Source of the DNA: an uncultured Desulfovibrionaceae bacterium
GTDB lineage: Bacteria > Desulfobacterota > Desulfovibrionia > Desulfovibrionales > Desulfovibrionaceae
DNA length: 43,779 nt
Assembly (NCBI GenBank): GCA_964589455.1
Contig: CAZPTC010000001.1
Span: forward strand, 1-43,779
Direction: 5' to 3'
Shown here piece after piece: positions 3,278 to 38,242 of the stretch; position 1 is the first letter of the stretch; each line of letters opens with the position of its first letter. Made by a program: the position numbers and the translations under genes. The notes beneath the pieces were generated by a model. The model was not told where the DNA came from and made no database searches. It saw nothing but the letters and a program-made list of their open reading frames with translations.

Positions 3278-4021
3278 ATGTCTGGACATAGCAAATGGGC
3301 CAATATACAGCACCGTAAAGGCCGTCAGGATATCAAACGCGGTAAGGACTTCACCAAAGCCGCCAAAGAAATTATTATTGCCGCCAAAGGCGGCGGCGAC
3401 CCAGCCGGCAACTCGCGCCTGCGCGCCGCCATTGCTGCCGCTAAAGCCGTTAACCTGCCTAAAGATAAAATTGAATCTGCCATACGCAAAGGCACTGGCC
3501 AGGAAGCTGGTGGCGATATTTTTGAAATTACCTACGAAGGGTACGGCTCCGGCGGCATAGCCATTATTGTGGAAACAGCCACGGATAATAAAAACCGCAC
3601 AGTGGCAGAAGTGCGCCATATATTCACCAAGCACGGCGGCTCCCTTGGGGAGTCTGGCTCTGTTGCCTGGATGTTTGACAAAAAAGGCGTTATCCGCCTG
3701 CCTAAAGCCCAATATCCCACAGAAGACCAGGTTATGGAGCTTGCCCTGGAGGCTGGCGCAGACGACGTGCAAGACGATGACGAAGCCTGGGAAATTCACA
3801 CCACCTTTGAAGACTTTGCAACCGTGCGCGATGCCTTGGAAAATGCAGGTGTGACAATGGAAGAAGCTTCCCTTGCCATGCTGCCTAAAACCCCTGTGCC
3901 TGTAGACGCAGACACTGGCCGCAAAGTGCTTAAACTTATGGACGCCTTGGAAGACTTTGACGACGTCCAGAATGTGTTCAGCAACTGCGACTTCCCCGAT
4001 GATTTAATGGCAGAAATGTAA
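3278..4021 (+). CDS. yebC: YebC/PmpR family DNA-binding transcriptional regulator
   Basis: [19 protein letters not shown]-terminus is diagnostic; 247 aa. Confidence 0.92.
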
Positions 4022-4034
4022 AAACAGGAAGAGT

Positions 4035-4059
4035 TTTGGGGGAAATAATTTCCCCCAAA
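4035..4059. repeat. G5/C5 palindromic hairpin (TTTGGGGGAAAT-A-ATTTCCCCCAAA), one member of a recurring intergenic family
   Basis: Perfect 12-nt arms immediately after the yebC stop. Related copies lie at 9286-9305, 23935-23957, 23966-23986 and 24005-24023. Confidence 0.7.
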
Positions 4060-4215
4060 CCCCCTTGTATAAACTTGTACTGCTTGCAAAACACAAAACT
4101 GCCCCGACCACACCACAGAAAATAATGCCCTTGTGCGCTTGTTAGAACCGCGCTATTTTTCCGCTACCTCCTTAAAACTGGACAGCGCGAAATCTAACCC
4201 CGCAAGGAGGATGGT

Positions 4216-4296
4216 ATGTATACGCATATCATGCGTGCCGCTATTGTGGTAGCAATTATCCTTCTGTGCTTGTTGCTGAAAAGCAGTAGTCACTAG
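4216..4296 (+). CDS. 26-aa hydrophobic peptide, copy 1 (candidate type I toxin / small membrane protein)
   Basis: AAGGAGG at 4204-4210, then ATG 5 nt downstream. Product is MYTHIMRAAIVVAIILLCLLLKSSSH. A terminator hairpin follows 17 nt after the stop. The ORF is intact in both repeat copies with only conservative changes. Confidence 0.5.
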   Translation: MYTHIMRAAIVVAIILLCLLLKSSSH

Positions 4297-4312
4297 AATA
4301 TAGGTAATGGTT

Positions 4313-4352
4313 GACCCCGGTAGTGGTTGCACACTGCCGGGGTCCTTTTATT
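4313..4352 (+). terminator. Intrinsic terminator of small ORF copy 1
   Basis: GACCCCGG-T-AGTG ... CACT-G-CCGGGGTC stem followed by CTTTTATT. Confidence 0.7.
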
Positions 4353-4443
4353 AAAACCTTTAACCGGGTTTTAAGGAGAAGGGGTTCGCGCGGGGGGCAG
4401 GGTGTAACAAGCACCTTGCCCCTGTCCTTTTCCTCATAGGCAT

Positions 4444-4472
4444 AAAATAAAATGCTTTAAAAAACCTGTCAA
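4444..4472 (-). promoter_or_regulatory. Candidate sigma-70 promoter convergent on small ORF copy 1 (possible antisense RNA)
   Basis: The minus strand reads TTGACA (4472-4467), a 17-nt spacer, then TATTTT (4449-4444). The same arrangement is present in copy 2. Confidence 0.4.
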
Positions 4473-4608
4473 GTATAACTGCTTATACTTTTAGGGCTTC
4501 GCTTTTACTGAAGAAAAAATAATAGCCGCTGCTGGCATACATGCGTTATTTTTCCGCGACCTCCTTAAAACTGGGCAGCGCGAAATCTTACCCCGCAAGG
4601 AGGATGGT

Positions 4609-4689
4609 ATGTATACGCATATCATGCGTGCCGCTATTGCGGTCATTATTATCCTTCTGTGCTTGTTGCTGAAAAGCAGTAGTCACTAG
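4609..4689 (+). CDS. 26-aa hydrophobic peptide, copy 2
   Basis: AAGGAGG at 4597-4603, ATG at 4609. Product is MYTHIMRAAIAVIIILLCLLLKSSSH. Confidence 0.5.
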   Translation: MYTHIMRAAIAVIIILLCLLLKSSSH

Positions 4690-4705
4690 AATATAGGTAA
4701 TGGTT

Positions 4706-4745
4706 GACCCCGGTAGTGGTTGCACACTGCCGGGGTCCTTTTATT
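4706..4745 (+). terminator. Intrinsic terminator of small ORF copy 2
   Basis: Identical to the hairpin plus T-run at 4313-4352. Confidence 0.7.
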
Positions 4746-4835
4746 AAAACCTTTAACCGGGTTTTAAGGAGAAGGGGTTCGCGCGGGGGGCAGGGTGCTT
4801 CAACACCTTGCCCCTGTCCTTTTCCTCATGGGCAT

Positions 4836-4864
4836 AAAATAAAGAGCTTTAAAAAACCTGTCAA
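4836..4864 (-). promoter_or_regulatory. Candidate sigma-70 promoter convergent on small ORF copy 2
   Basis: TTGACA (4864-4859), 17-nt spacer, TATTTT (4841-4836) on the minus strand. Confidence 0.4.
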
Positions 4865-4927
4865 GTATAACAACTTATACTTTTAGGGCTATCCATTTGC
4901 TCAAAGAAAATAATAGCCGCAACTACC

Positions 4928-6640
4928 CTAAAACGTAAAGCCCAGCTTTTTCATGGCCTGCATACCACCAAGGGAGTTTTGGGTTTCTATGCCGTGTTTG
5001 CGCAATATAAGCTGCGATTCGTATGCGCGTGTGCCAGAATTGCAGATAAGGGCAATGGGCTTATTGCGGGGTATTTCATCCAGCCTTTCCTGCAGTTCTT
5101 CCAAAGGAATAGCCAGCCAAGTGCCTTCATACTTATGGGCAAGGTCAAGGCCAGCGCGGCCGGGGCGCACATCCAGGAAGCAGTAGTTGTTGTGCTCACG
5201 GTTTTCAAACAGTTCCACAAACTCCAAGGGGCTGATGCTCTTATGCACGCCTGCAAGCACGTTATCCGCCACATTGGCAGCAGAGTTGATAACATCCATG
5301 GCAGAAGCAAAAGGCGGCGCGTATGCCACTTCCAGATTAGAAAGGTCTTCCAAAGTAGGCTTTGAGAATTGCAGCATGGCGGCAACCGCGTCTATACGCG
5401 CTTTAAGGGCAATGCCATCTGCGCATACGCCCTGCACACCAAGCAGGCGGCGGGTGGGTTTATCCACCACCACTTCCAAAGTCATCATGGTTTTTTCCGG
5501 GTAGAAGTGGGCGCGGTCAAGCTGCTCCATATTCACGCTTATGGCGTCAAAACCTTCGCGCTTTGCAGCGGCATGGGTAAGGCCTGTGCCAACAGCGCTC
5601 ATTTTATTCAATTTTACGCACCAGGTACCCACAACACCGGGGAAATGGGCATTGCCACCGGCAAGATTGGTGCCAATAACACGGCCTTGTCTGTTAGCCA
5701 TAGAGCCAAGGGGCAAATATACCTGCTTGCCTGTGATAAGGTTTGGCACAACGCAGCAGTCACCACCTGCAAAAATAGCAGGGTCAGAGGTGCGCATGGC
5801 AGTGTCTACCACAACGCCGCCCTTGGGGTGACATGCAAGGCCAGCGGCCTCTGCAATTTGGGAATTAGGGGCAACACCAACAGAGAAAATAACAAGATCA
5901 GCGGGAATTTGGCGCTTATCTGTAATAACTTCAGCTACGCTGTTATCCTCATTGCCTTTAAGGGCAGTTACCTTTTCGCCGGTAAGCACATTGATGCCAA
6001 GCTCTTCCAAGTCAAACTTTGCCATTTGGGCAAGCACAGGAGAAAGCTGGCCAGGGAGTATCTGGTCAAAAATTTCTATAACAGTGGTAGGTATGCTCCA
6101 CATATCTGCCAAAGCAACGGCCATTTCAAGGCCAATAAAGCCACCGCCCACAATAACGGCGCTGTTAACTTTGCGCTCTGTGCACAGTTCGTGTACAGCC
6201 TTGGCGGCTTCTAAATTGGTAACGGTAGTAACATTTTTAAGGGTATTGCCTTCAATGGGGGGCACACGAGGTGTAGCGCCTGTGGCAATAACCAGCTCAT
6301 CGTACGGTAAATCTGAACGCACACCAGAGCTAAGATTTTCTACAGTCACGGTTTTTTTATCGCGGTTAATGGCAAGGGCGCGGGTATGGGTAAGCACGTC
6401 CACGCCTTTTAGGTCGTGAAAAAATTGGGGGTCGCGCACGACATTGGCAGATGTAGCACGCAAAGCGTCCAGCTTGCCTACTTCGCCAGAAACAAAATAC
6501 GGGATGCCACAACCACCATAAGATATAAAGGAGCCTTCATCCACCATAGTAACAGTGGCGTCAGGCATAAGACGCTTGGCGCGCGCTGCTGCCTTGGGGC
6601 CAAGTGCAACACCGCCGATAATGAGAATGTTTTTGGGCAT
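4928..6640 (-). CDS. FAD-dependent pyridine nucleotide-disulfide oxidoreductase with C-terminal rhodanese domain (CoADR-RHD / persulfide-reductase-like)
   Basis: ILIIGGVALGPKAA FAD motif; SYGGCGIPYF redox-Cys motif of CoA-disulfide reductase/NADH oxidase; second GGGFIGLE dinucleotide fold; C-terminal rhodanese loop CNSGTR. Start taken at MPKNIL (6640). The track extension to 6832 has no homology logic. Confidence 0.88.
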   Translation of the reverse strand: MPKNILIIGGVALGPKAAARAKRLMPDATVTMVDEGSFISYGGCGIPYFVSGEVGKLDALRATSANVVRDPQFFHDLKGVDVLTHTRALAINRDKKTVTVENLSSGVRSDLPYDELVIATGATPRVPPIEGNTLKNVTTVTNLEAAKAVHELCTERKVNSAVIVGGGFIGLEMAVALADMWSIPTTVIEIFDQILPGQLSPVLAQMAKFDLEELGINVLTGEKVTALKGNEDNSVAEVITDKRQIPADLVIFSVGVAPNSQIAEAAGLACHPKGGVVVDTAMRTSDPAIFAGGDCCVVPNLITGKQVYLPLGSMANRQGRVIGTNLAGGNAHFPGVVGTWCVKLNKMSAVGTGLTHAAAKREGFDAISVNMEQLDRAHFYPEKTMMTLEVVVDKPTRRLLGVQGVCADGIALKARIDAVAAMLQFSKPTLEDLSNLEVAYAPPFASAMDVINSAANVADNVLAGVHKSISPLEFVELFENREHNNYCFLDVRPGRAGLDLAHKYEGTWLAIPLEELQERLDEIPRNKPIALICNSGTRAYESQLILRKHGIETQNSLGGMQAMKKLGFTF

Positions 6641-7007
6641 AAAATTCCCCTTAGCAAAAGGTGAAGAGAGGCGATTGCCTCGCAGGAGAAAAACGCGCAA
6701 TGCGTTGCATTTATACTGCATTGGAAGGACAGATAAATGCCGCGTTAAGTATAGCCTGAAAGACAGGTAAAAAGCAAGTAGGGAAGTGTGGGAAATGGCT
6801 TTTGTCGAAACTGCTGACACCACCGGTAACATGGGAAAAGGGGAAAGAGCGAAACCGTTTTATGCTGTAAAGTCAGCCATATAAAAATATGTTTTTTTAC
6901 TTTGCGCAGGCAGAGAAAATACTCTATATGTACTGGTTCAAAGTATATATGCGCCATTCTGCAGATACCTGATGCGCGCATGTTGGAACAAAAAAAGGAG
7001 CAAACCC

Positions 7008-9314: not shown

Positions 9315-12300
9315 CTACCAGCGCCAGCCAAGGGTAAAACCACCGTTGAGGCCGGTGTACTGCGCTCGAAAAGCTTCTATACCGCCGAATAAGGAGAATG
9401 TTAAGCGCGAATCTGCGTGGGTAAAATTGGCACTGCCTTGCAGGAGTAAGCTATCGCGGCCGCGTACATTTTTTGTGGTAAAAGGAACATTGTAGCCCAC
9501 AAAATTGGCGCGGAAAGAGCCTGCCTGCAAAAACTCGTGCCCCCAGGCAGCAGAAAGTATACCTTGCACACGCACCTTTTCTGTAAGGTTGCCTGTAAGG
9601 CGCGCCTGAAGCCCAAGGCTGGAGCGCAAAGAATGGGTGCCAGCCCCTGCAATATGCAGCGCTGTTGCGGCATCGCCATGTTCTGTAAAGGCGGGTCTGA
9701 AATAGCCGCCATAAGAAAGCCCTGCAAAAGGCCCGGCAGAAACAAAGTCCCACTGGTGTTCCCAGCCAAGACGAAACTCTGCACTGGCTGTAAAGGCTGT
9801 AAAATCGCTGGTATTTTGTCGGATAAAGGTATTAAGGGCAATACTGCGGCTTGTGCGGGTATTTTCCAGCCCAAGAGCGGCAGCGCCATAAAGCCAGACA
9901 GAACCGGCCCCTAAGGGGTAAAAGTCTTGCGCAAGGGCTTGCACACCCAAAGAAAGCGCATCTACCTGCGACTTTGCGATATGGAGTTCTGTTGTTTGGC
10001 GGTGCGTATACCCAAGAGATATACCAGCCTGTGCCTTGGGGAAGGAAAAGTTCCATGCCCCAAGCATTCCGCCAAACGCTGTTGTAGCGCAAGAAGCGCC
10101 TTTTTGGCCCTTTTGGAACAGGCCGCCACCCATAGGGATAACAGTTGCATAGCTGTTACTGAAAAGACCAGTGCTGCCACTGTTTGCGCCAGACACACCT
10201 TGGCCTTGTGTATGGCTTTGCATAGTGGCAAGTAATGTAGAGGCTTGTATACGGCCATAATCTAAACTTGCCTGTGCTACACCATTGTATACTGTGGGAG
10301 AAAGCGCTTTAAGCGCTTTATGGACAAGACTGCCATTTGTTGCAGAAAAATCCAGAGCTTGGAAAAGGTTTTGGGTATCCCCACTTGCATTGCCAGACAT
10401 ACCATACAGAGCATCCCCAAGATTGTGCATATTGCTGTTGCTTGCATATTGGCTGTAGGCCTGCGGGGCGCGGCTGAGGGAAAGCGTGCCGGAATAGTCT
10501 GGAGCCAGAGTGGCAGCAAGGGAAAGAGTGGGGGAGAAATGCGTAGACAGCGCAAGAGAACCTGCAGAAGCGCCTGCAAAGGTAAGCAGAGGGTTCTGCA
10601 GGATTATGACGGTGTTATTCTGCCAGTAGCCGCTTAAAGGTTCAAGCAACAAAGTTCCGTCCAGGCTGGCTGTGCCAGCAATATTGAGCTGGTCTGCATG
10701 GCCTGCTTTATCAAACTCCATACGCAGCACGCCATTTGCGTACTGGGTATAATCCTGCACAGTAAGCGTGCCAATGCTGTTGCCTGGGGCAACTGTGCCA
10801 TTATTATGCAAAATATTGGCCACTGTGCCATTGCCCATTAATGTGCCTGCAGGCAATACCCAGGCATTTTCTATGCTGCCTTGCAGGGCAGAGCCTGTAG
10901 AAAGGGAAATGGCCCCGCCTTCTATAATGGTAAAGCCGCTGTAAGAATTGTTGCCTGTAAGGTACAGTATGCCTTGCCCTTTTTTGGTAAGGCCAATGGG
11001 TAAACCACCAAGCGCAGCACGGGCATCTGCGGCATTTGCAAAGCCGTAGTATGCAAGCTGGCTGGCATTGTATTCTGTAGGCAAACCAATGGGAATAGAA
11101 GTACCGGGTATATTCCCGTAGGTATCGCCATAGGTTATTTCTGTAATATCATTGCTCCAGATGCTGGAATAGCCCTTGGTATCTACTGTGTATTGCCATT
11201 CTTTTGCGTCGCCATTTATGGCAACAGGGCGTATATCTGTGTTGGGGTTTAACCAGGAAGCTTTAAAATACCCAGGGCCTTGCACTGCTTTGCCGGCATT
11301 TAAATAGCCATGCCCAAAAACATCTGCAAAAGAAACTGTTGTTGTTTCCACATCCAGTGCTAAAAAATCCGCTAAGGTTTTGATTTGATAAAACCCATCA
11401 AGCAGGGCGCTATTTTCATTATAATAGGCTGTCAGATCTGCCGTTTGATCACCGCTCTGGATTGCCCCCTTGAAATAAAGAAGGTTGATTTTGAGCGTCA
11501 CAGTATCAGAGTCAATGATTTCTTTAATCACCGCGGTATAGGGAGCAGGTTCAAATTTGTTTGCCGTAGAAAACATGGTTGAAGTAAGCTGCTTTGCGCT
11601 CATGTACGGGAATGCCTGTTCTACAAGCCCCAAAACACCGCTTGTTATGGGCGCTGCCATAGAAGTGCCAGACATGGACGTATATTCTTTTCCTTTGCCC
11701 GAAAAAGCGGAGATAATATTTATACCGGGTGCTGATACAGCGTAGTCTTGTACACCGTGCATAGCCAGATCGCTGAATATAGCGGGTAAAGCAATAGAAG
11801 AAGTAAGTTTACCAGAATCTAGCGCTATTACAGTGACAAAATTTCCTATAAGTTCAGGGTACTTTAGCGGGATAGCAGACATAATATCCGGGCTGCTCCA
11901 CCCTGAGTTGCCTGCAGCAAAAACCATGACTCTGTCCTGTATGGCCAGATCATAATATGCCTTTGTTGTTTTGGGTATTGATGCCAGAACGCTATAGGTG
12001 GGGTCGTTTTCTAAGGCATACGTATACCCCCAACTATTATTGATAATACGCACTTGCGGGTATTGCAAAAAATAGGAAACAGTTGCGGAATTATACCCAT
12101 CTGTCGTATTTTCACCAAGGGCCATAGCGGAACTTACCAGATTGGCATCATAGGCCACCCCATGCATACCCACGCCATTTTTTTTGGCAACCATGCTGCC
12201 ACCAACATGTGTACCGTGGGTGTGCTTTTCCCAATTTATCACAAGACCATCCGGCACAAACCTTCCCAGCACTTTGCCTTGCAGTTCCGGGTGATACGGC

Positions 12301-12494
12301 TGTACACTGTTATCTATGATGCCCAAAACAACACCTTTTCCTGTAAAACCAAGCTCATAGGCTTTACTAAGGTTAATGGCGTCATACGCGCTTGCGTTTG
12401 TATAGTAATATTCTTTTGTCTGGAATGGGCTGGCAGCAAATGCCGGGCCTGTAAAAAGAAGCGTAAGGAAAAGTGCTGGGAGGAAAAAGCGCAT
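9315..12494 (-). CDS. Autotransporter with subtilisin-like (peptidase S8) passenger domain
   Basis: Signal peptide MRFFLPALFLTLLFTGPAFA. S8 residues: Asp (GIIDNS), His (HGTHVGG), Asn (AAGNSG), Ser (SGTSMAAP). Passenger repeat GNSIGTLTV...DQLNIAGTASLDGTL. C-terminal beta-barrel ends ...GFTLGWRW. Start taken at 12494, the second in-frame ATG. Confidence 0.9.
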   Translation of the reverse strand: MRFFLPALFLTLLFTGPAFAASPFQTKEYYYTNASAYDAINLSKAYELGFTGKGVVLGIIDNSVQPYHPELQGKVLGRFVPDGLVINWEKHTHGTHVGGSMVAKKNGVGMHGVAYDANLVSSAMALGENTTDGYNSATVSYFLQYPQVRIINNSWGYTYALENDPTYSVLASIPKTTKAYYDLAIQDRVMVFAAGNSGWSSPDIMSAIPLKYPELIGNFVTVIALDSGKLTSSIALPAIFSDLAMHGVQDYAVSAPGINIISAFSGKGKEYTSMSGTSMAAPITSGVLGLVEQAFPYMSAKQLTSTMFSTANKFEPAPYTAVIKEIIDSDTVTLKINLLYFKGAIQSGDQTADLTAYYNENSALLDGFYQIKTLADFLALDVETTTVSFADVFGHGYLNAGKAVQGPGYFKASWLNPNTDIRPVAINGDAKEWQYTVDTKGYSSIWSNDITEITYGDTYGNIPGTSIPIGLPTEYNASQLAYYGFANAADARAALGGLPIGLTKKGQGILYLTGNNSYSGFTIIEGGAISLSTGSALQGSIENAWVLPAGTLMGNGTVANILHNNGTVAPGNSIGTLTVQDYTQYANGVLRMEFDKAGHADQLNIAGTASLDGTLLLEPLSGYWQNNTVIILQNPLLTFAGASAGSLALSTHFSPTLSLAATLAPDYSGTLSLSRAPQAYSQYASNSNMHNLGDALYGMSGNASGDTQNLFQALDFSATNGSLVHKALKALSPTVYNGVAQASLDYGRIQASTLLATMQSHTQGQGVSGANSGSTGLFSNSYATVIPMGGGLFQKGQKGASCATTAFGGMLGAWNFSFPKAQAGISLGYTHRQTTELHIAKSQVDALSLGVQALAQDFYPLGAGSVWLYGAAALGLENTRTSRSIALNTFIRQNTSDFTAFTASAEFRLGWEHQWDFVSAGPFAGLSYGGYFRPAFTEHGDAATALHIAGAGTHSLRSSLGLQARLTGNLTEKVRVQGILSAAWGHEFLQAGSFRANFVGYNVPFTTKNVRGRDSLLLQGSANFTHADSRLTFSLFGGIEAFRAQYTGLNGGFTLGWRW

Positions 12495-12532
12495 GGAAGA
12501 TATCCTTTTTAAGGTGCAAAATATTCTCATAG

Positions 12533-14242: not shown

Positions 14243-14274
14243 GCCCGAAAGTTACCTTTCGGGCTTTTCTTTTC
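14243..14274 (+). terminator. Intrinsic terminator downstream of the 49-aa ORF
   Basis: GCCCGAAAG, loop TTAC, CTTTCGGGC, followed by TTTTCTTTTCC. Confidence 0.7.
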
Positions 14275-14350
14275 CTTAAAATATATTTCATTGAAATATA
14301 TTTTGTCTGCCCATGCTAACAATTTGGCAGGAGGGGAAGAGAGGGGGCTT

Positions 14351-36904: not shown

Positions 36905-38242
36905 CTAAAAGTCCACCACTACCTTTTCCATTCTGGCAAGGTCGCGCTTATAGGTGAAAGAAGCACACAAGAACAACACACCACTGATAAGGGAACAAAC
37001 TGCCATAAGGGATATAGCGGTGACTATATCAAAGCGGTCAGACAAAAAGCCCATTAAGGTGGGGCCAACGGCCATACCAAAAATGTTTTGCACCACAATC
37101 ATAATAGAAGCAGCGGAAGCTCTGTGGTGGGGCAAGGAAAGGTCAGCTATTACAGTAAGGCAAGTAAGAGTTGTGGGTCCAAGAAAAAAGCCGTACACCA
37201 TAACCATAATAAGCTGGGCGCCGCTGGCTGGGGTAAAGAATTGGAAGCATAAAAGAATGCCAAAAAAGCCAATAAGGCCGCACAAAGCCACAACTTTAAG
37301 GGTATTGTGCATGCCAATGCGCCTGCGCAGCCAGTCTGCACCTACGCCATAGAGAATCATATACACAAGGGAAATAAGCATGGTAGAGGCAGCAAGGCTT
37401 GCTGCCAGGGAAGGGGTAGCATTAGCAACACGCACAAAGTATGTAGGCAGCCAGTTCATAAGGGCTGTGCTTACAATAACCATGGTTGTCTGCCCAAGAA
37501 CAGCAAATGCAAGGGTAGGTTTGGTGACAAGGTTAAGAAGAATTTTAAGGTAATTAACCTTTTCAGCCTCAAGCTGCACACACTCGCCCTGCACTTCTTC
37601 CACTTTTTTGACGCCTTTAAAGTCTTTTATAAACAGGGCAGTAAAAGCAAGAATAAGGCCGGGAATGGCAAACAAACCAAATGCGTGCTGCCAGCCCCAT
37701 TTAGAGGCAATAAGCGCGCCAACAGCCAAACCAATAGGCGCACCAAGTGTCATACCAATATTAAGGCATGCCAAAATGGTGGCTCTGTATTTTTCCGGGA
37801 ATGAGGCTACAAGTAAACTTTGACCGGCAGGGCCATAACCTGCTTCACCAGCGCCCACAAATAAACGGCAAACCAGCAATTGGGCAAAGGACGTACTAAA
37901 GGCGCACATGGCAGTTGCAAAGCTCCACACAAACGCCATAATGCCCATCATTTTTTTGCGGCTCCACTTATCAATAAAATACGCGGCAGGCAGTGCAAAA
38001 ACCGCCAACCCAATATTAACTATGGAAAGTAAAAGGCCAAGCTGGGTGTCTGACAAGCCAAAGTCTTTTTGCAGATACGGAAGCAGCGCTGTGATAACCT
38101 GCCTGTCTGCCATATCCAATACGCCCAAAAGTAACACAATAAAAAGTGTAAGAAAAGCCGCTTTTTTACCTATTGGCCAAGCATCTTTAGATGGCTCGCA
38201 GGCAAGGTCTTGTTGCGTTGCTGCTGGATTTTTCGTAGCCAT
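36905..38242 (-). CDS. MFS transporter
   Basis: About 12 TM segments and the loop 2-3 motif DKWSRKK. Start taken at MATKNP (38242); the track start is 38272. Confidence 0.85.
   Translation of the reverse strand: MATKNPAATQQDLACEPSKDAWPIGKKAAFLTLFIVLLLGVLDMADRQVITALLPYLQKDFGLSDTQLGLLLSIVNIGLAVFALPAAYFIDKWSRKKMMGIMAFVWSFATAMCAFSTSFAQLLVCRLFVGAGEAGYGPAGQSLLVASFPEKYRATILACLNIGMTLGAPIGLAVGALIASKWGWQHAFGLFAIPGLILAFTALFIKDFKGVKKVEEVQGECVQLEAEKVNYLKILLNLVTKPTLAFAVLGQTTMVIVSTALMNWLPTYFVRVANATPSLAASLAASTMLISLVYMILYGVGADWLRRRIGMHNTLKVVALCGLIGFFGILLCFQFFTPASGAQLIMVMVYGFFLGPTTLTCLTVIADLSLPHHRASAASIMIVVQNIFGMAVGPTLMGFLSDRFDIVTAISLMAVCSLISGVLFLCASFTYKRDLARMEKVVVDF

Follow-up and report, generated by a model that had tools for sequence, protein, structure and literature searches.

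A tandemly duplicated small membrane peptide module with candidate type I toxin-like organization in a Desulfovibrionaceae bacterium

The intergenic region between yebC and a CoADR-rhodanese gene of an uncultured Desulfovibrionaceae bacterium, analysed within a window of 43,779 nucleotides (the whole stretch of DNA studied), is best explained as holding a stand-alone, lineage-specific small gene that lies between convergent genes and is duplicated in tandem here. We give about an even chance to the reading that this module represents a new type I toxin-like family, with a presumed toxicity and a presumed antitoxin, whose closest functional analogues are hok and aapA. A predicted occlusion of the SD and AUG, two putative 3' ends and a possible 5'-3' lock follow the logic of type I mRNAs, and the type I toxin-like reading is therefore proposed. 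The preliminary description of this DNA had called the locus a candidate of type I toxin-antitoxin-like kind. The toxin side of that claim stands, with an ORF kept in a second species, an SD and AUG predicted to be occluded and no known family, and the RNA antitoxin was not found, so that 'candidate' stays the right word.

Tandem Repeats Finder reported positions 4150-4920 as a tandem repeat with a period of 393, 2.0 copies, 93% matches and 1% indels, in agreement with the two direct copies in a 393-nt register that had been aligned by hand at approximately 92% identity. In a repeat comparison, 4150-4404 and 4543-4797 were 96% identical, and 4412-4518 and 4804-4910 were 88% identical. The flanking genes were also as described before: YebC corresponds to PF01709/PF20772, and the other side is a Pyr_redox_2/Pyr_redox_dim oxidoreductase in whose homologues a rhodanese domain is present; the minus-strand stop codon of its gene occupies 4928-4930. 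The repeat unit had been taken as one module, which holds for most of it and fails for the last ~60 nt of each copy; these are better read as a copied terminator of the convergent CoADR gene, outside the module. The terminator of the CoADR-rhodanese gene lies in copy 2 (4851-4888, minus strand; hairpin 4863-4882 and a T-run), and its redundant copy lies in copy 1 (4459-4496, minus strand; hairpin 4471-4490, whose outer pairs are CCT/AGG, and a minus-strand U-run after it). In the related locus L086, the equivalent hairpin is directly 3' of the CoADR stop and is followed by U7 (-21.4 kcal/mol, z -4.2). The alignment and the motif positions place a 13-nt filler, assigned to neither strand, at the duplication junction (4530-4542).

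Each copy contains the SD AAGGAGG (4204-4210 and 4597-4603) with an ATG 5 nt further on (4216 and 4609), and the two 26-codon hydrophobic ORFs that follow on the plus strand (4216-4296 and 4609-4689) translate exactly as first written, to MYTHIMRAAIVVAIILLCLLLKSSSH and MYTHIMRAAIAVIIILLCLLLKSSSH, respectively. When both strands of the whole 43.8-kb window were scanned for ORFs of 16-70 aa that had a start 4-9 nt from a strong SD and at least 12 hydrophobic residues in 15, these two were the only ones found, compared to a mean of 0.02 in shuffled sequence. The peptides of the module are 26-27 aa long, with I/V/L/F/C/M/A at 14 of the 15 positions of the best 15-residue stretch and with KSSSH and SSASLR as tails. 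They fit the type I toxin profile of a hydrophobic product below 60-70 aa with a single predicted TM stretch and a short polar C-terminus. The ORF is probably coding, and its product is predicted to be a single-pass membrane peptide of 26-27 residues. A lipoprotein signal peptide was ruled out, as L-L-C does not match a lipobox. A 27-aa minus-strand ORF in the 3' part of the unit (4360-4443) was rejected since hairpin-loop lengths of 7, 6 and 5 nt in the three sequences shift its frame and L086 has no ATG there. The SD-like AAGGAGAAGG (4373-4382) has no start codon near enough to serve another ORF as its RBS, and that reading was dropped.

Assembly GCA_964547565.1 carries one module copy at the identical yebC/CoADR site, and its YebC is 92% identical to that of the window. 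The ORF there is open and in frame (MLKRIMRAAIVVIIILLCLLLSSASLR), with indels on either flank and none inside it; preservation of the ORF in relatives had been proposed earlier as a check, and this second species keeps the frame open despite the flanking indels. Three full units from two species were compared (both copies of the window and the single one of L086). Both species retain the SD with optimal spacing, the ATG and a hydrophobic stretch of 17 residues without interruption. Between copy 2 and L086 the core showed 3 differences in 51 nt (two synonymous and one A/V), compared to 11 in 24 nt at the two termini (Fisher p = 1e-4). Substitutions spare the membrane-spanning core and both termini vary, residues 2-4 and the C-terminal tail not being conserved; codons 2-4, which lie within the predicted start-codon hairpin, change from YTH to LKR in L086. 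The stretches ATCATGCGTGCCGCTATTG and GGTTTTAAGGAGAAGGGGTTCGCGC of the module are conserved.

Searches of 84-87 loci with blastn, tblastn and nhmmer (the last with a single sequence and a 3-sequence profile as queries) found the module only in the window and in loci L085, L086 and L087, and it was found in no more than three genomes. In relatives at 72-78% identity, the surroundings of yebC or CoADR were without the module, the CoADR 3' flank of a 72% relative was an unrelated context, and none of nine more distant relatives had a small hydrophobic ORF of like kind 3' of yebC. Cluster members of the flanking proteins added no genomes. Plasmids and phages had no blastn match to the module, and viral contigs had none to the ORF core or the 3' element. 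A degenerate DNA pattern for the N-terminus MYTHIMRA had 0 matches in 185,579 species genomes, 0 in viral contigs and four chance matches to unrelated ORFs in JGI metagenomes; this pattern is a poor probe because the N-terminus is the variable part. A chimeric six-frame ORF query against 5.8 billion proteins gave no match among at most 8000 candidates, and the only match of the 32-aa stop-to-stop ORF in a phmmer search of 1.84 billion representatives was spurious.

The peptide, which had earlier not been recognised as a member of the known toxin families, belongs to no known family: there was no Pfam match above cut-off and none in NCBIfam or by BLASTP. With hmmscan at E up to 10, the sole match was ODV-E18, below its cut-off; NCBIfam was empty. 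The peptide matched none of the models Hok/Gef (PF01848), TisB (PF13939), Ldr (PF13940) and Fst (PF13955), and among the control sequences the Pfam library recovered TisB, Hok and Ldr, with Fst below threshold. Local alignment against Ibs, ShoB, ZorO, DinQ, AapA1, PepA1 and BsrG sequences gave z of -0.4 to 2.6; the ShoB, AapA1 and ZorO control sequences had no Pfam match, so that for these three the comparison is one by alignment. A similarity to Hok (z 4.3 against shuffles) was discounted as an artefact of one TM segment aligning with another, BLASTP and the HOK_GEF profile being empty. Nothing in the whole window reached the Rfam gathering threshold; the best scores below it were 26 bits where 60 are required. 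Since the neighbouring gene runs convergently and Rfam had no match, the unit was not taken for a leader peptide, an attenuator or a riboswitch that acts on a downstream gene. In the searchable literature, no type I toxin module was described in Desulfovibrio or relatives.

A putative plus-strand promoter region of copy 1 (4119-4159) comprises an A-rich tract, AAAATAAT (4119-4126), a -35-like TTGTGC (4131-4136), a 17-nt spacer and a -10-like TATTTT (4154-4159), with 7 of 12 consensus positions. In the promoter block AAAATAA(T/C)G(A/C)CCTTGTGCG, conservation between window and L086 is 85%, compared to 44-48% in the adjoining flank. Copy 2 has no conserved -35-like box, and its conserved CCTTGTGCG box is missing because of the 13-nt junction filler. 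Transcription would start at A4166 in copy 1 and A4559 in copy 2. The plus-strand 5' UTR would accordingly occupy 4166-4215, with a 5'-terminal anti-SD, ACCUCCUUAAAAC (4166-4178), a GCGCGAA box (4185-4191) and the SD, and 4559-4608 in copy 2, with the anti-SD at 4559-4571. The putative RNA 5' end, ACCUCCUU, is identical to the anti-SD tail of 16S rRNA, and ACCTCCTT..GAAAT of the 5' UTR is 89% conserved in L086. In silico, an anti-SD:SD helix (pair probabilities 0.77-1.0) and a 9-bp start-codon hairpin (4211-4232, plus strand, in copy 1) were each predicted in 3 of 3 sequences. The predicted probability of being unpaired in the three sequences was 0.00-0.06 at the SD and 0.00-0.05 at the AUG, compared to medians of 0.46 and 0.49, respectively, in 21 ordinary genes of the window. 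The SD was exposed in no predicted state, and 5' truncation raised the probability to 0.26-0.42 at most. By prediction, then, both the SD and the start codon are masked within the fold of the mRNA itself.

The GC-rich 13-bp hairpin with a U-run noted before at 17 nt past each stop was recovered at 4313-4344 and 4706-4737 (with the U-tract, 4313-4352 and 4706-4745, plus strand). This hairpin 1 consists of 13 pairs (9 G-C) around a 6-nt loop and is followed by the tail CTTTTATTAA; its stability is -27.2 kcal/mol on the plus strand and -21.0 kcal/mol on the minus strand. With a G+C-rich stem, a U-tract directly 3', a kept structure and the plus strand favoured, it fits a Rho-independent terminator, and it may serve as terminator or 3' stabiliser of a short mRNA. 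In L086 it shows one compensatory change (G-C to A-U) and two one-sided changes, and the start-codon hairpin shows three one-sided pair changes (G-U/A-U, U-A/U-G, U-G/U-A) with its loop free to vary. Both structures are kept via wobble or compensatory changes while their loops change; covariation is thin because the three full units come from two species only.

A conserved, near-invariant 3' element follows on the plus strand, which in copy 1 (4366-4434, 69 nt) is predicted to form one long hairpin. It contains an SD-like sequence, GUUUUAAGGAGAAGG (4368-4382), UUCGCGC (4385-4391), hairpin 2 (4393-4424) and an anti-SD-like CCUUUUCCU (4426-4434); in copy 2 the SD-like sequence and hairpin 2 occupy 4759-4826. 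The element of copy 1 is 88-92% identical to L086, with changes mostly in the loop. Its predicted folding energy was -41.5 kcal/mol on the plus strand compared to -28.8 on the minus strand (z -4.4 and -1.7, respectively, for copy 1), and z-scores over all units were -4.1 to -4.4 and -1.6 to -2.3, respectively. Positions 4368-4378 are perfectly complementary to 4168-4178 over 11 nt, which was reached by 0 of 2000 shuffles; in L086 the complementarity is 10 nt, then 2 more past a bulge. A fold with the 5'-3' helix equals the predicted MFE in copy 2 and lies 1.4-2.6 kcal/mol off the MFE in the other two sequences. The short RNA is predicted at -70.6 kcal/mol (z -4.5). From the putative +1 to the end of the 3' element, in both copies and L086, every 70-nt window folded better on the plus strand by 4-13 kcal/mol.

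In the type I toxin-like reading, the plus-strand RNA starting at A4166 (A4559 in copy 2) would encode the membrane peptide and would be built to keep it untranslated. The 5' end ACCUCCUU would pair with the very strong SD, the 9-bp hairpin would enclose the AUG, and a second anti-SD inside the ORF, AUCCUUCU (4258-4265, plus strand, in copy 1), may be able to take over the SD. The transcript would end at hairpin 1 (~187 nt) or past the conserved 3' hairpin (~270 nt). Since the SD-like sequence in the 3' hairpin is complementary to the 5' end, the long form could close as a 5'-3' helix. Expression would presumably be released by RNA processing or refolding, and the peptide would presumably be countered by a candidate antisense RNA.

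Two candidate antisense promoters were found on the minus strand. Candidate A, TTTTCA-16-GATAAT (4255-4282, also 4648-4675), has 9 of 12 consensus positions, and as a hypothesis an RNA from it would cover the start codon, the SD and the 5' UTR. In L086 its -10 is kept as part of the ORF core and its -35 is lost (TACTCA), and no minus-strand terminator was found for it. Candidate B, TTGACA-17-TATTTT (4444-4472, also 4836-4864), has 10 of 12 consensus positions and is kept in L086 as TTGACA-17-TACTTT; a candidate antisense RNA from it would cover hairpin 1 and the 3' element. This second candidate overlaps the CoADR terminator, and minus-strand folding of its would-be transcript region is poor. 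The locus yielded no antitoxin RNA, and G-U pairs and z-scores there all favour the sense strand. A repeat comparison between the mRNA region and the upstream spacer showed no trans-sRNA complementarity of at least 12 nt.

The hok/sok systems (Hok/Gef family) occur on enterobacterial plasmids and chromosomes. In the highly structured hok mRNA, the 5' end pairs with a 3'-terminal element at full length, long and short 3' isoforms exist, and the fold blocks translation. The module resembles hok/sok in its small membrane peptide and in the 11-nt complement of its 5' end within the 3' element. In contrast to hok/sok, the module shows no sequence relationship (the HOK_GEF model recovers Hok and not the module peptide), its peptide is half as long and without a periplasmic Cys-containing domain, it has no overlapping mok-like leader ORF, and no Sok-like antisense gene was shown. 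In the Firmicutes pairs txpA/RatA, bsrG/SR4 and fst RNAI/RNAII, toxin mRNA and antisense RNA converge and their 3' ends overlap. If candidate promoter B is real, the module would likewise have converging RNAs with overlapping 3' ends; however, its sense strand folds much better, the antisense RNA would have no terminator, candidate promoter B overlaps the terminator of the neighbouring gene, and the Fst model is empty.

In aapA/IsoA of Helicobacter pylori, hairpins from the 5' UTR and the ORF sequester the SD and a 3' element locks the full-length mRNA by long-distance 5'-3' pairing (PMC6733600; Arnion et al. 2017, PMC5416894), and aapA3 combines successive anti-SD hairpins with a 5'-3' lock (Masachis et al. 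2019, PMC6733600). The toxin of ~30 aa is comparable to the module peptide of 26-27 aa, and the module has anti-SDs of three kinds, from the 5' end (4167-4173), the ORF (4258-4265) and the 3' element (4426-4434). In contrast, the module belongs to another phylum, peptide similarity is absent (z 0.4), the 3' partner of its 5' end is an SD mimic and not an anti-SD, and an IsoA-like antisense promoter is weakly suggested. Its short form is also predicted to be locked, so the activating step may differ. The E. coli loci ibs-sib, ldr-rdl and zorO-orzO have hydrophobic ORFs of 19-35 aa in tandem in one intergenic region, homology that reaches past the ORF and a strain-dependent copy number, and are missed by gene callers (PMC2887945). 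Published search criteria for type I toxins were a short ORF, a TM stretch, a polar C-terminus, an intergenic location and tandem repetition (Fozo et al. 2010, PMC2887945), and the locus agrees with the published criteria, including an intergenic stand-alone position, tandem copies and a narrow range (PMC2887945). The peptide is like Ibs in its short basic N-terminus, 14-17 hydrophobic residues and short polar tail. It differs from these E. coli systems in that there was no significant similarity (z at most 2.6; Ldr and TisB models empty), and the module showed no sRNA gene, divergent or overlapping, of extended complementarity.

The most far-reaching form of the type I proposal, that this is the first Desulfovibrionaceae type I toxin family and has an independently evolved hok/aapA-style 5'-3' mRNA lock, is unlikely. 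In its boldest version the toxin gene would be self-contained and have no antisense antitoxin. Control would then lie with the sense-strand 3' hairpin, its SD mimic swapping partners with the 5' anti-SD, and expression would be set by termination or 3' trimming alone. Type I toxin modules escape gene callers and homology searches, and because of this the known range is biased to enterobacteria, Firmicutes and Helicobacter. If validated, a family in gut-type Desulfovibrionaceae would widen that range, would illustrate clearly that multi-layer SD sequestration combined with a 5'-3' lock can evolve convergently, and could possibly provide a compact counter-selection or containment cassette for hard-to-engineer Desulfovibrionaceae anaerobes. 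Type I toxins have reportedly been put to use in this way in Clostridioides difficile (bioRxiv 10.1101/2020.03.04.976019).

Many small membrane proteins are harmless, and a benign membrane protein with cis-regulated translation is a serious rival, if a somewhat doubtful one. For such a regulator or accessory subunit of a membrane complex, the 5' anti-SD helix and the 3' element would gate translation purely in cis, with neither toxin-antitoxin function nor antisense RNA. It shares the coding evidence with the type I reading, all conserved structure is on the sense strand with no convincing antisense gene, and the module is stable at one chromosomal site in two species. However, tandem copies, a stand-alone site, a narrow range and layered SD occlusion are typical of type I loci (PMC2887945; PMC6733600) and unusual among housekeeping small proteins; moreover, there is no partner gene or operon context, and the termini evolve fast. 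If the peptide is harmless, the module would still encode a conserved small membrane protein that is unannotated and whose translation is controlled in an unusually elaborate way.

That the RNA itself is the product is improbable. It could act as an sRNA, maybe dual-function, whose 5' CCUCCUU seed hits RBSs in trans, or as a regulatory or decoy RNA, the ORF being incidental or rarely translated. The best-conserved stretches are non-coding (5' block 89%, 3' element 88-92%), codons 2-4 track hairpin and not amino-acid constraints, and the z-scores are strong, but a perfect SD, the ATG and the 17-residue hydrophobic stretch are kept in both species, core changes are synonymous or hydrophobic-to-hydrophobic, the ORF has no indels whereas its flanks have several, and no Rfam family matches. 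Three terminator-like hairpins per unit between convergent genes, with a copy of the CoADR terminator included, would suit a region without dedicated function, in which terminators and insulating hairpins were duplicated by chance around a spurious ORF. This is very improbable, as it leaves unexplained the SD, ATG, hydrophobic ORF and 5' anti-SD conservation, the 11-nt 5'-3' complementarity and the invariant unpaired stretches, and no comparable spacer lies 3' of yebC in more distant relatives. The duplication of the unit and an inverted repeat on both sides of the ORF (4166-4182 / 4364-4382) recall a miniature mobile or repeat element (MITE/REP-like) with short inverted repeats at its ends. 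We regard such an origin as extremely improbable, since there is no further copy in the window or any fetched locus and no match in plasmids, phages or viral contigs, the insertion site is identical in two species, and the tandem duplication has a 13-nt filler, unlike transposition.

Tandem Repeats Finder detected a repeat with a period of 393 nt, 2.0 copies and 93% matches at positions 4150-4920, in agreement with the 393-nt tandem unit claimed in the preliminary description. In ungapped comparison, the copies were 96% identical for 4150-4404 versus 4543-4797 and 88% identical for 4412-4518 versus 4804-4910. The other elements described there were also found in both units: the SD AAGGAGG at 4204-4210 and 4597-4603 with an ATG 5 nt downstream, 26-codon ORFs at 4216-4296 and 4609-4689 with the same translations, and a 13-bp hairpin (hairpin 1; 9 G-C pairs) followed by CTTTTATTAA at 4313-4344 and 4706-4737. 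The left neighbor is yebC (plus strand, ends at 4021). On the right, a gene on the minus strand with its stop at 4928 encodes a CoADR-type FAD oxidoreductase; the module therefore lies between two convergent 3' ends. The left limit of the copied unit falls between the -35-like and -10-like boxes and its right limit just short of the CoADR stop; a second, redundant CoADR terminator is included. Because the unit begins between the boxes, and the junction carries a filler of 13 nt (4530-4542), the CCTTGTGCG box present in copy 1 and in both relatives described below (L085 and L086) is absent from copy 2, and expression of copy 2 may differ from that of copy 1. Differences between the copies were clustered in codons 11-13 (4247-4254 versus 4640-4647; 5 of 9 nt, V-V-A versus A-V-I) and in the loop (4405-4411 versus 4798-4803) of hairpin 2, which lies inside the conserved 3' element. 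The 150 nt between these clusters (4255-4404) were identical in both copies, and the right-hand third of the unit was only 88% identical. This clustering could reflect gene conversion, or constraint together with divergence at copy-specific recognition or specificity loops. A (G)AAAATAAT(A)GCC motif was present left of copy 1 (4119-4126), at the junction (4516-4523) and right of copy 2 (4907-4914), and both L085 and L086 conserve it upstream of the module. Possible roles are an UP-like element for the sense promoter and a minus-strand -10 (TTATTTT) for a divergent transcript; a promoter scan of L086 at that motif gave TTGAAA-16-TATTTT on the minus strand.

Among 185,579 species genomes, the closest YebC proteins were 72-77% identical and belonged to uncultured Desulfovibrio and Mailhella MAGs, whose loci lacked the module; the window organism is a member of the Desulfovibrionaceae without a close species representative. 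Two closer relatives were found in a larger protein collection: the Logan assembly SRR29713737 (contigs L085 and L088; YebC 96%, CoADR 98%) and the NCBI MAG GCA_964547565.1 (locus L086; YebC 92%, CoADR 91%), plus a fragment from SRR10912415 (L087). Exactly one copy was found in L086, again between yebC and CoADR, where the spacer measures 468 nt compared to 906 nt in the window; the duplication postdates the split from the L086 lineage. Both SRR29713737 contigs end on entering the unit (L085 at 4261-4294 on the yebC side, L088 at 9535-9602 on the CoADR side), as short-read assemblies do at repeats, so that this strain probably carries at least two copies. No further genomes with the module were found, and it had no match in plasmids, phages or viral contigs, in Pfam, NCBIfam or Rfam, or among predicted proteins, where ORFs this short are rarely called. 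As far as seen, the module is therefore limited to one narrow clade.

Both strands of the whole window were scanned for ORFs of 16-70 aa that have a strong SD 4-9 nt from the start and a stretch in which at least 12 of 15 residues are hydrophobic. The two module ORFs were the only ones to pass, compared to a mean of 0.02 in shuffled sequence. The ORF was preserved in L086, where it is open for 27 codons (MLKRIMRAAIVVIIILLCLLLSSASLR) and the SD, spacing and ATG are kept. Copy 2 and L086 differed at 14 of 78 aligned ORF positions, 3 in the core (residues 5-21, 51 nt; two synonymous and one Ala/Val) and 11 in the termini (residues 2-4 and 22-26, 24 nt; Fisher p = 1e-4 for core versus termini). 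The core differences between the window copies were also hydrophobic-for-hydrophobic (V/A, A/I). Between the window and L086, indels were absent from the ORF and several were present in the flanks; one of these, 8 nt long and right at the ORF 3' end, supplies the stop codon of the window. In both versions the N-terminus is basic and the tail is Ser-rich with a single basic residue. At the sequence level, these substitutions are consistent with selection to keep a membrane-spanning helix whose ends are under loose constraint, although they carry less weight than a large alignment would. The module is probably coding, and we consider production of the peptide quite likely.

Conservation between the window and L086 came in blocks. 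Identity was 44% in the yebC-proximal flank, 85% in an A-rich tract followed by CCTTGTGCG, 89% in the 5' block ACCTCCTTAAAAC.GG.CAGCGCGAAAT, 93% from SD to ATG, 44% in codons 2-4, 88% in the ORF core, 60% in the spacer after hairpin 1 and 88-92% in a 69-nt 3' element (4366-4434), in which changes were concentrated in the loop. In L086, one compensatory change and two one-sided ones preserve the hairpin 1 stem. The pair TTGTGC-17-TATTTT (TATCGT in L086) is weakly promoter-like and would make the A of ACCUCCUU the +1 in both species; conservation begins exactly at this putative position. Read-through from yebC may be an alternative source of module RNA. The approximately 187-nt RNA ending at hairpin 1 had a predicted fold of -70.6 kcal/mol (z -4.5). 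In all three sequences, the two window copies and L086, the 5' end was predicted to pair with the SD (pair probabilities 0.77-1.0) and the AUG sat in a predicted 9-bp hairpin; the 16S rRNA 3' tail has the sequence ACCUCCUUA. The predicted P(unpaired) was 0.00-0.06 (SD) and 0.00-0.05 (AUG), compared to medians of 0.46 and 0.49, respectively, for 21 ordinary window genes in comparable folding windows. Three wobble-compatible substitutions kept the start-codon hairpin intact across the YTH-to-LKR change, and its loop changed. On these predictions, it is RNA structure and not protein that seems to constrain codons 2-4.

A minus-strand sRNA gene was the initial reading of the near-invariant block that follows hairpin 1. 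A perfect TTGACA-17-TATTTT (TTGACA-17-TACTTT in L086) adjoins this block; an antisense RNA from that promoter-like site would carry CCCCUUCUCCUU, an anti-SD. This was not kept as the main reading because of fold strength, strand bias in sliding windows and overlap with the CoADR terminator. The block folded at -41.5, -39.9 and -39.3 kcal/mol on the plus strand (z -4.1 to -4.4) versus -28.8, -30.8 and -28.0 kcal/mol on the minus strand (z -1.6 to -2.3), all of its non-Watson-Crick pairs being G-U on the plus strand and thus A-C mismatches on the minus strand. From the putative +1 to the block end, and only there, every sliding 70-nt window favored the plus strand by 4-13 kcal/mol, in L086 as well as in both copies. 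TTGACA-17-TATTTT overlaps the hairpin and U-run that form the CoADR terminator on the minus strand (in L086 directly after the stop codon, -21.4 kcal/mol, z -4.2, then U7), and a different reason thus accounts for the conservation of its -35 and spacer. The CoADR-terminator hairpin of L088 has a U-G pair on the plus strand, which is an A-C mismatch on the minus strand.

On the plus strand the block formed one long predicted hairpin through pairing of AGGAGAAGG with CCUUUUCCU. The 5' arm of this hairpin, GUUUUAAGGAG (4368-4378), and the RNA 5' end, CUCCUUAAAAC (4168-4178), have a perfect complementarity of 11 nt, a length reached by 0 of 2000 shuffles; in L086 the complementarity spans 10 nt, plus 2 past a 1-nt bulge. 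For the approximately 270-nt RNA, the fold with this 5'-3' helix was the MFE in copy 2 (-119.5 kcal/mol), and was -117.7 versus an MFE of -120.3 kcal/mol in copy 1 and -107.0 versus -108.4 kcal/mol in L086. In this fold the ORF-internal anti-SD AUCCUUCU takes over the SD in each window copy. The SD-like strands of the RNA number three (the SD, AGGUAAU after the ORF and a 3' mimic), as do its anti-SD-like strands (5', ORF-internal and 3'), and in the models these can pair locally or swap partners. The true SD was covered in every predicted state, and removal of the 5' end raised its predicted P(unpaired) only to 0.26-0.42.

These comparisons of two species indicate that the module is real, conserved and lineage-specific, with an elaborate self-silencing RNA as predicted by folding. 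The most likely reading, to which we give about an even chance, is a type I toxin-like gene. Its self-silenced mRNA would encode a small membrane peptide and have two 3' isoforms, ending at hairpin 1 or after the 3' element; successive anti-SD pairings and a 5'-3' lock would keep the mRNA translationally inert, and processing or refolding would release expression. Of the type I-like locus proposed in the preliminary description, the toxin-side features of the class stood, and the antitoxin side came down to two candidate antisense promoters on the minus strand. Candidate A (4282..4255 and 4675..4648) has a -35 that is not kept in L086, and candidate B (4472..4444 and 4864..4836) overlaps the CoADR terminator, which confounds it; if used, A would give an IsoA/Sok-like and B a RatA/SR4-like arrangement.

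A benign small membrane protein with translation regulated in cis would share the conserved hydrophobic core and the covered SD; we regard it as a serious rival, less likely than the toxin-like gene. An RNA-only or dual-function sRNA would be favored by the hairpin constraint on codons 2-4 and the conserved 3' element and disfavored by the substitution pattern of the ORF core, and we consider it improbable. A non-functional stack of terminators would accommodate hairpin 1 and the redundant CoADR terminator and not the preserved ORF or the 5'-3' complementarity, and is very improbable. Least credible of all is a mobile repeat, which the duplication of the unit would favor, and the shared insertion site in two species and the lack of matches in plasmids, phages and viral contigs disfavor.

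The toxin-like module would work like the hok/aapA class and is a member of no known toxin family. The peptide, which the preliminary description did not recognise as belonging to such families, had no match to the Hok, TisB, Ldr and Fst Pfam models in a library that recovers control toxins; pairwise scores against eleven toxins were insignificant. A similarity to Hok (z 4.3) was rejected as a TM-against-TM artefact, unsupported by BLASTP and by profile. The hok mRNA follows the same silencing-then-release logic as that proposed for the module. In aapA3, two metastable SD-sequestering hairpins are followed by a 3' anti-SD and a 5'-3' interaction (PMC6733600), a control logic that matches the proposed mechanism, the module side being taken from predicted folds. 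The locus also has the properties by which zorO and other families were discovered (PMC2887945). Judged from sequence and modeled structure, the module is a credible candidate for a new type I toxin-like family, in a phylum for which the literature searched gave no described example.

Gene order around the module was conserved in all three genomes. A perfect 12-bp palindrome (TTTGGGGGAAAT A ATTTCCCCCAAA) at 4035-4059, 14 nt past the yebC stop, had no adjoining U-run on either strand. At the same place, L086 has a hairpin of other sequence (AGAGCATTTCCC...GGGAAATGCTCT), so that structure was kept and sequence was not; the palindrome is probably the yebC 3' end. Upstream of the module, the spacer (4042-4150; 10825-10934 in L086) is C/A-rich on the plus strand; unlike the module, it has its better fold on the minus strand, by 5-12 kcal/mol. 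A repeat search found no repeats of at least 12 nt that it shares with the toxin mRNA region. For the CoADR-type gene (4928-6832, minus strand), the longest ORF was 634 aa compared to 569-570 aa in all close homologues. The ATG of MPKNILIIGG at approximately 6640 is most likely the true start, and the 64-residue N-terminal extension is most likely an ORF-finder artefact. A large ORF nearby (9315-12530, minus strand; 1071 aa) has a counterpart of 1058 aa at 1938-5114 of L088, in which Peptidase_S8, PATR and Autotransporter domains were found. Two short tandem repeats unrelated to the module were present at 14271-14303 (period 15, 2.2 copies, in an AT-rich spacer) and at 37708-37760 (period 24, 2.2 copies, inside a coding region).
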